Position numbers and translations under genes: made by a program
The notes under the pieces: model-generated
Database searches by the model: none
Told to the model about the DNA's origin: nothing
What the model saw: the letters and a program-made list of their open reading frames with translations, nothing else
Part shown: piece after piece, positions 44,952 to 45,028 of the stretch
How positions within the stretch are numbered: position 1 is the stretch's first letter
How the letters are laid out: each line of letters opens with the position of its first letter
NCBI RefSeq assembly: GCF_003790525.1
Contig: NZ_CP033635.1
Source of the DNA: Escherichia coli
GTDB taxonomy: Bacteria; Pseudomonadota; Gammaproteobacteria; Enterobacterales; Enterobacteriaceae
DNA length: 64,000 bases
Direction: 5' to 3' (one strand)

Positions 44952-45028
44952 CGCGGGGTGGAGCAGCCTGGTAGCTCGTCGGGCTCATAACCCGAAGGTC
45001 GTCGGTTCAAATCCGGCCCCCGCAACCA
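44952..45028 (+). tRNA. metY: initiator tRNA-fMet (anticodon CAT), 77 nt, G at position 46
   Basis: CGCGGGGTGGAGCAGCCTGGTAGCTCGTCGGGCTCATAACCCGAAGGTCGTCGGTTCAAATCCGGCCCCCGCAACCA; C1:A72 mismatch and three consecutive G-C pairs in the anticodon stem are initiator hallmarks. Confidence 0.95.

Follow-up and report, generated by a model that had tools for sequence, protein, structure and literature searches.

Whether an E. coli strain carries G or A at position 46 of the initiator tRNA encoded by metY, and how much that single base says about the strain, is the question raised by the locus examined here, which lies in a 64-kb stretch of E. coli DNA that we refer to as the window. The difference in metY between K-12 and E. 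coli B was published in 1992 by Mandal and RajBhandary, according to the citation of their work in PMC3017606, and the A46 of K-12 metY has since been set against the m7G46 of tRNA-fMet1 and of B strains in several papers (PMC3017606, PMC6511841, PMC8887418, and PMC7949028). Furthermore, a 2026 preprint (bioRxiv 10.64898/2026.04.16.719103) aligned the metY genes of K-12, B, C, W, Crooks, and Nissle 1917, found A46 confined to K-12 among these six strains, and called G46 canonical. A sequence-only reading of the window had proposed that its metY carries G46, different from the A46 of K-12 and in agreement with E. coli B and the metZWV genes, and had taken this, together with the missing gltF, as a sign of a non-K-12 lineage. 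The analysis reported below leads us to conclude, with a probability of about 97%, that metY of the window has the ordinary allele, G46, which is also the ancestral one, and that the peculiarity, A46, belongs to K-12 and not to the window. The identity of the gene, its allele, the distribution of the two alleles, and the assignment of the ancestral one were all established directly from the sequences compared.

Identity and surroundings of the initiator tRNA gene

A tRNA-Met gene with a CAT anticodon was placed by ARAGORN exactly at positions 44952 to 45028 of the plus strand, as one of the two tRNA genes of the window, and the Rfam tRNA model RF00005 matched positions 44952 to 45025 with 61.4 bits. 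The string quoted in the sequence-only reading, CCCGAAGGTCGTCGG, is found in the window sequence. The gene is 77 nt long, has its CCA end encoded, and presents the extra nucleotide 17a in the D loop, so that linear nucleotide 47 corresponds to standard position 46 and thus to window position 44998, where the base is G. The D stem carries an A11-U24 pair, which is a feature of bacterial initiator tRNAs. In addition, C1 stands opposite A72, forming the C1xA72 mismatch, whose role in the initiator tRNA has been described (PMC7949028), and the anticodon stem contains the three consecutive G-C pairs G29-C41, G30-C40, and G31-C39, the role of which has been described as well (PMC3017606 and PMC7949028). 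The minimum-free-energy fold of the tRNA is a class I cloverleaf with a CAU anticodon. All the hallmarks that we checked are therefore present, and the region from 44952 to 45028 is a bacterial initiator tRNA gene, with a sequence of the tRNA-fMet1 type.

Only one copy of this tRNA occurs in the 64-kb window, and it is preceded by a leader of its own, since the 5' sequence TTTCAGG differs from the CCACGGA found at metZ and from the ACGGTGA found at metW and metV. The divergent argG gene and the rimP-nusA-infB genes downstream complete a context which, with the single copy and the specific leader, identifies the gene as the metY locus and not as a member of metZWV; the same synteny is found in the annotated genomes of MG1655, REL606, and SMS-3-5. 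Within the metY-rimP-nusA-infB operon, metY occupies the first place.

Upstream of the tRNA, two promoter-like sites could be noticed on the plus strand. The first (44830 to 44859) presents a perfect TTGACA-18-TATAAT arrangement, matching the consensus at 12 of 12 positions, followed by the GC-rich sequence GCCTGC. The P-1 promoter has been described as having G or C at five of the six bases that separate the -10 element from the +1 A (PMC6511841), and since GCCTGC-A fits this description, we infer that the putative promoter at 44830 to 44859 corresponds to the published P-1. The second site (44907 to 44936), whose TAGAAT -10 element ends 16 nt before the tRNA, has a 9/12 match to the consensus and is probably the P0 promoter, which lies upstream of metY (PMC6511841). 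On the other side of the gene, the rimP leader was recognized on the plus strand at 45117 to 45217 (Rfam RF01770; 102 bits, E = 2.5e-18), and a terminator scan detected inside it two terminator-like hairpins on the same strand (45150 to 45173 and 45198 to 45210), each followed by a T run. Terminators t1 and t2 sit upstream of rimP (PMC6511841), and the two hairpins probably represent them. Past metY, the next gene that codes for a protein is rimP itself (45235 to 45687, plus strand), which has a TTG start and a translation ending in PHF before the stop codon; the annotations of SMS-3-5, MG1655, and REL606 have rimP at the corresponding position.

Distribution of the two alleles in E. coli

The metY gene of MG1655 (NC_000913.3, 3318213 to 3318289) was taken as the K-12 reference. 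In a 281-nt alignment around the gene, the orthologous K-12 locus shares 280 nt with the window, those of the leader and of the promoter-like sites among them, and the sole difference falls at window position 44998 (plus strand), that is, at variable-loop position 46 of the tRNA, which is G in the window and A in MG1655. Had the K-12 reference also shown G at this position, the proposed distinction would have fallen, but it reads A. In contrast, the tRNA of the window is identical at 77 of 77 positions, G46 included, to metY of REL606 (E. coli B) and to each of metZ, metW, and metV of MG1655. The gene thus encodes G46, as expected of the tRNA-fMet1 isoform (metZ, metW, metV, and the metY of E. 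coli B), and presents G in place of the A46 that distinguishes tRNA-fMet2, the product of K-12 metY. These comparisons bear out what had been proposed for the allele of the window, for K-12, and for E. coli B and metZWV. The window and REL606 also share the context of metY, which has argG on its upstream side, in the opposite orientation, and rimP-nusA-infB on its downstream side; the two differ in this region by one SNP of the 3' flank, at window position 45043, where REL606 has T and the window has C. This site, 15 nt past the tRNA, is a common SNP, and MG1655 carries the same C as the window.

The frequency of each allele was determined among complete E. coli genomes with short queries extended into the 3' flank specific to metY, so that metY, and not metZWV, gives the best place in each genome, and designed in such a way that one mismatch puts the match below the 99% band. 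The counts refer to the 5,425 complete genomes that gave a match, as one of 5,426 genomes gave none. With a 90-mer query (44971 to 45060), 4,697 genomes matched the G46 form of the window exactly and 365 matched the A46 form of MG1655. With a 70-mer query (44971 to 45040), which omits the common SNP of the flank, the exact matches were 5,044 for G46 (93.0%) and again 365 for A46 (6.7%), and 16 genomes (0.3%) were exact to neither form. Of the genomes, 347 are exact to the 70-mer and not to the 90-mer, and most of these are likely explained by the SNP at 45043. As a separate observation, in the genome of strain IR53017 (NZ_CP064103.1), the metY context was not matched over its full length; the best place (approximately 1,185,114 to 1,185,193) covers the tRNA part only, with one mismatch, and metY may have been deleted or rearranged in this strain.

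Approximately 70 of the 365 carriers of A46 were listed by name, and most of these are named laboratory derivatives of K-12, including MG1655 sublines, C600, J53, ME8067, DH5alpha, NEB 5-alpha, HST04, DH1, RR1, NCM3722, AG100, GM4792, DHB4, ER1709, EPI300, and DSM 498. The remaining carriers listed (e.g., WCHEC035053S1G0, HT-948, and DTU-1) have uninformative names and K-12-like genomes of about 4.5 to 4.8 Mb. It is quite probable that A46 is strictly private to the K-12 pedigree, a restriction that is read from the names of about 70 of the 365 carriers and that leaves room for a rare wild one. An apparent exception to the rule that K-12 strains carry A46 was considered and rejected: NZ_CP026085.1, a genome of 4.83 Mb labeled 'DH5alpha', carries G46, but the segment from 562991 to 575191 shows 107 mismatches to MG1655 in 12.2 kb around metY. 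This genome is therefore not K-12 at metY, and its label is probably wrong.

Ancestral state of position 46 and lineage of the window

In order to place the two alleles in a wider context, an exact 31-mer with A46, running from the anticodon loop to the T loop, was searched in 100,044 bacterial and archaeal genomes, one representative for each of 100,044 species, and gave 0 matches. As an outgroup sample and positive control, we used a pattern that joins the metY-specific leader to the tRNA and has N in place of base 46, which retrieved 71 metY-type loci in Enterobacteriaceae other than E. coli. Both scans required exact matches, and their samples are made up of initiator tRNAs sharing the T arm or the leader used. 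The 71 loci span Citrobacter, Klebsiella, Raoultella, Enterobacter, Kluyvera, Kosakonia, and others, and include Salmonella enterica subsp. diarizonae and Escherichia whittamii. In 62 of them, rimP follows downstream, in the same orientation, at a distance of no more than 700 nt, and the other 9 end too soon to tell. Position 46 is G in all 71 loci. This uniformity, the absence of the A46 31-mer from the 100,044 representative genomes, and the G46 of metZWV together indicate that G46 is ancestral and A46 derived. As far as sampled, the derived A46 occurs in K-12-type strains only.

It is possible to imagine the opposite course, in which an ancestor of the window had A46 and metY was turned back to G through gene conversion from metZWV, an event that is mechanistically possible, as the four initiator tRNA genes are identical at 77 of 77 positions. 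However, 93% of the E. coli genomes and all 71 outgroup loci have G46, A46 was, as far as sampled, not found outside K-12 strains, and the more parsimonious history is a single change from G to A along the K-12 branch, with no conversion. Moreover, the flanks of metY in the window and in MG1655 are identical up to the SNP, so that no conversion tract is visible. We regard such a secondary origin of G46 as extremely improbable and retain its ancestral condition.

The rest of the window is informative about the strain. Positions 2769 to 64000 are collinear with MG1655 at 98.1 to 98.4% identity, and the 1,053 mismatches over these approximately 61 kb confirm the non-K-12 lineage. Positions 1 to 2768 gave no alignment to MG1655, in keeping with the earlier remark that gltF is missing next to gltD. 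In fact, where K-12 has gltF-yhcA-yhcD-yhcE-yhcF-yhcG downstream of gltD, the window has on the minus strand, directly downstream of gltD, the genes of a DUF5691 protein and of a SWIM zinc-finger protein, occupying 1 to 1217 (cut by the edge of the window) and 1214 to 2536. In SMS-3-5, the complete replacement, to which both of these genes belong, is a cluster of five genes in the interval from gltD to nanQ, namely, SWIM, DUF5691, an ATP-binding protein, DUF5682, and VWA. The whole window differs from E. coli SMS-3-5 by one base in 64 kb, and over the first 25 kb there is 100% identity to more than 12 further genomes, the sources of which were humans, chickens, dogs, and surface water. The lineage is SMS-3-5-like. 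The one differing base lies at window position 9235, in the gltB-yhcC intergenic region, and is G in the window and T in SMS-3-5. Elsewhere, the alignment to both MG1655 and REL606 breaks at window positions 32806 to 32813, between dacB and obgE, where the reference genomes have about 150 extra bases (3,330,427 to 3,330,579 in MG1655), possibly a small repeat element.

The near identity to SMS-3-5 also bears on the reliability of the base itself. Four identical tRNA copies in each genome could in principle mislead a short-read assembly, and G at 44998 might then be a sequencing or assembly error or the result of metZWV reads collapsed onto metY. Such an artifact is hardly credible, given that G is also the base of 5,044 complete, independent genomes and that the window matches the finished SMS-3-5 chromosome at every base except 9235.

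The same comparison decides on the proposal that G46 specifically marks a lineage related to E. coli B, a reading suggested by the G46 of REL606 and by the literature, which frames the polymorphism as K versus B. The window is only 98.1 to 98.9% identical to REL606 and does not share its flank SNP at 45043, whereas it is one base apart from SMS-3-5; furthermore, G46 is nearly universal. On these grounds the B-lineage reading is refuted, and we assign it a negligible probability. G46 is not a special marker of the B type, but the default across the species and the family. Since K-12 is the outlier at position 46, the SNP says only that a sequence is not K-12. The difference between K-12 and B in metY was already known, and the call of a non-K-12 strain is correct, but the SNP says little about lineage.

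Position 46 and the initiator tRNA pool

Position 46 is unpaired in the predicted cloverleaf of metY, and the G and A alleles give the same fold, both at -30.3 kcal/mol. The nucleotide at this position of tRNAs joins the 13-22 pair in a tertiary triple. From the literature we infer what G46 would entail for the strain: methylation to m7G, a base triple, and initiator tRNA of one species only. TrmB/YggH methylates G46 to m7G (PMC7949028; also PMC8887418), and G46 in the variable loop of the window tRNA would thus be expected to become m7G46 through this enzyme, the gene of which, trmB, lies outside the 64-kb window. The modified base may then form the tertiary base triple with the C13-G22 pair. 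The mature initiator tRNA would be charged with methionine, formylated, and brought to the ribosomal P site via IF2. As the product of metY in the window is identical to that of metZWV (tRNA-fMet1), the strain would make one initiator tRNA species only. Different from this, the A46 product of K-12 cannot carry m7G46 and constitutes a separable minor species, amounting to about 25% of the initiator pool (PMC8887418 and PMC6511841).

The modest addition made by this analysis is one of scale, with 5,425 complete E. coli genomes and 71 of 71 loci with G in other species. In practical terms, the SNP at position 46 can serve to tell quickly that a sequence does not come from K-12. That A46 was seen, as far as sampled, in K-12-type laboratory strains only and in none of the related species may be of use to those who build engineered initiator tRNAs from a K-12 metY (A46) template or generalize from studies of tRNA-fMet2. 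A strain such as that of the window should, by this reasoning, have a homogeneous initiator tRNA pool. If A46 is indeed private to K-12, the window adds nothing new and shows the normal state, the two-isoform initiator tRNA system often attributed to 'E. coli' would reflect an oddity of a single laboratory lineage, and the recent claims of a physiological role for tRNA-fMet2 would not generalize to the species.
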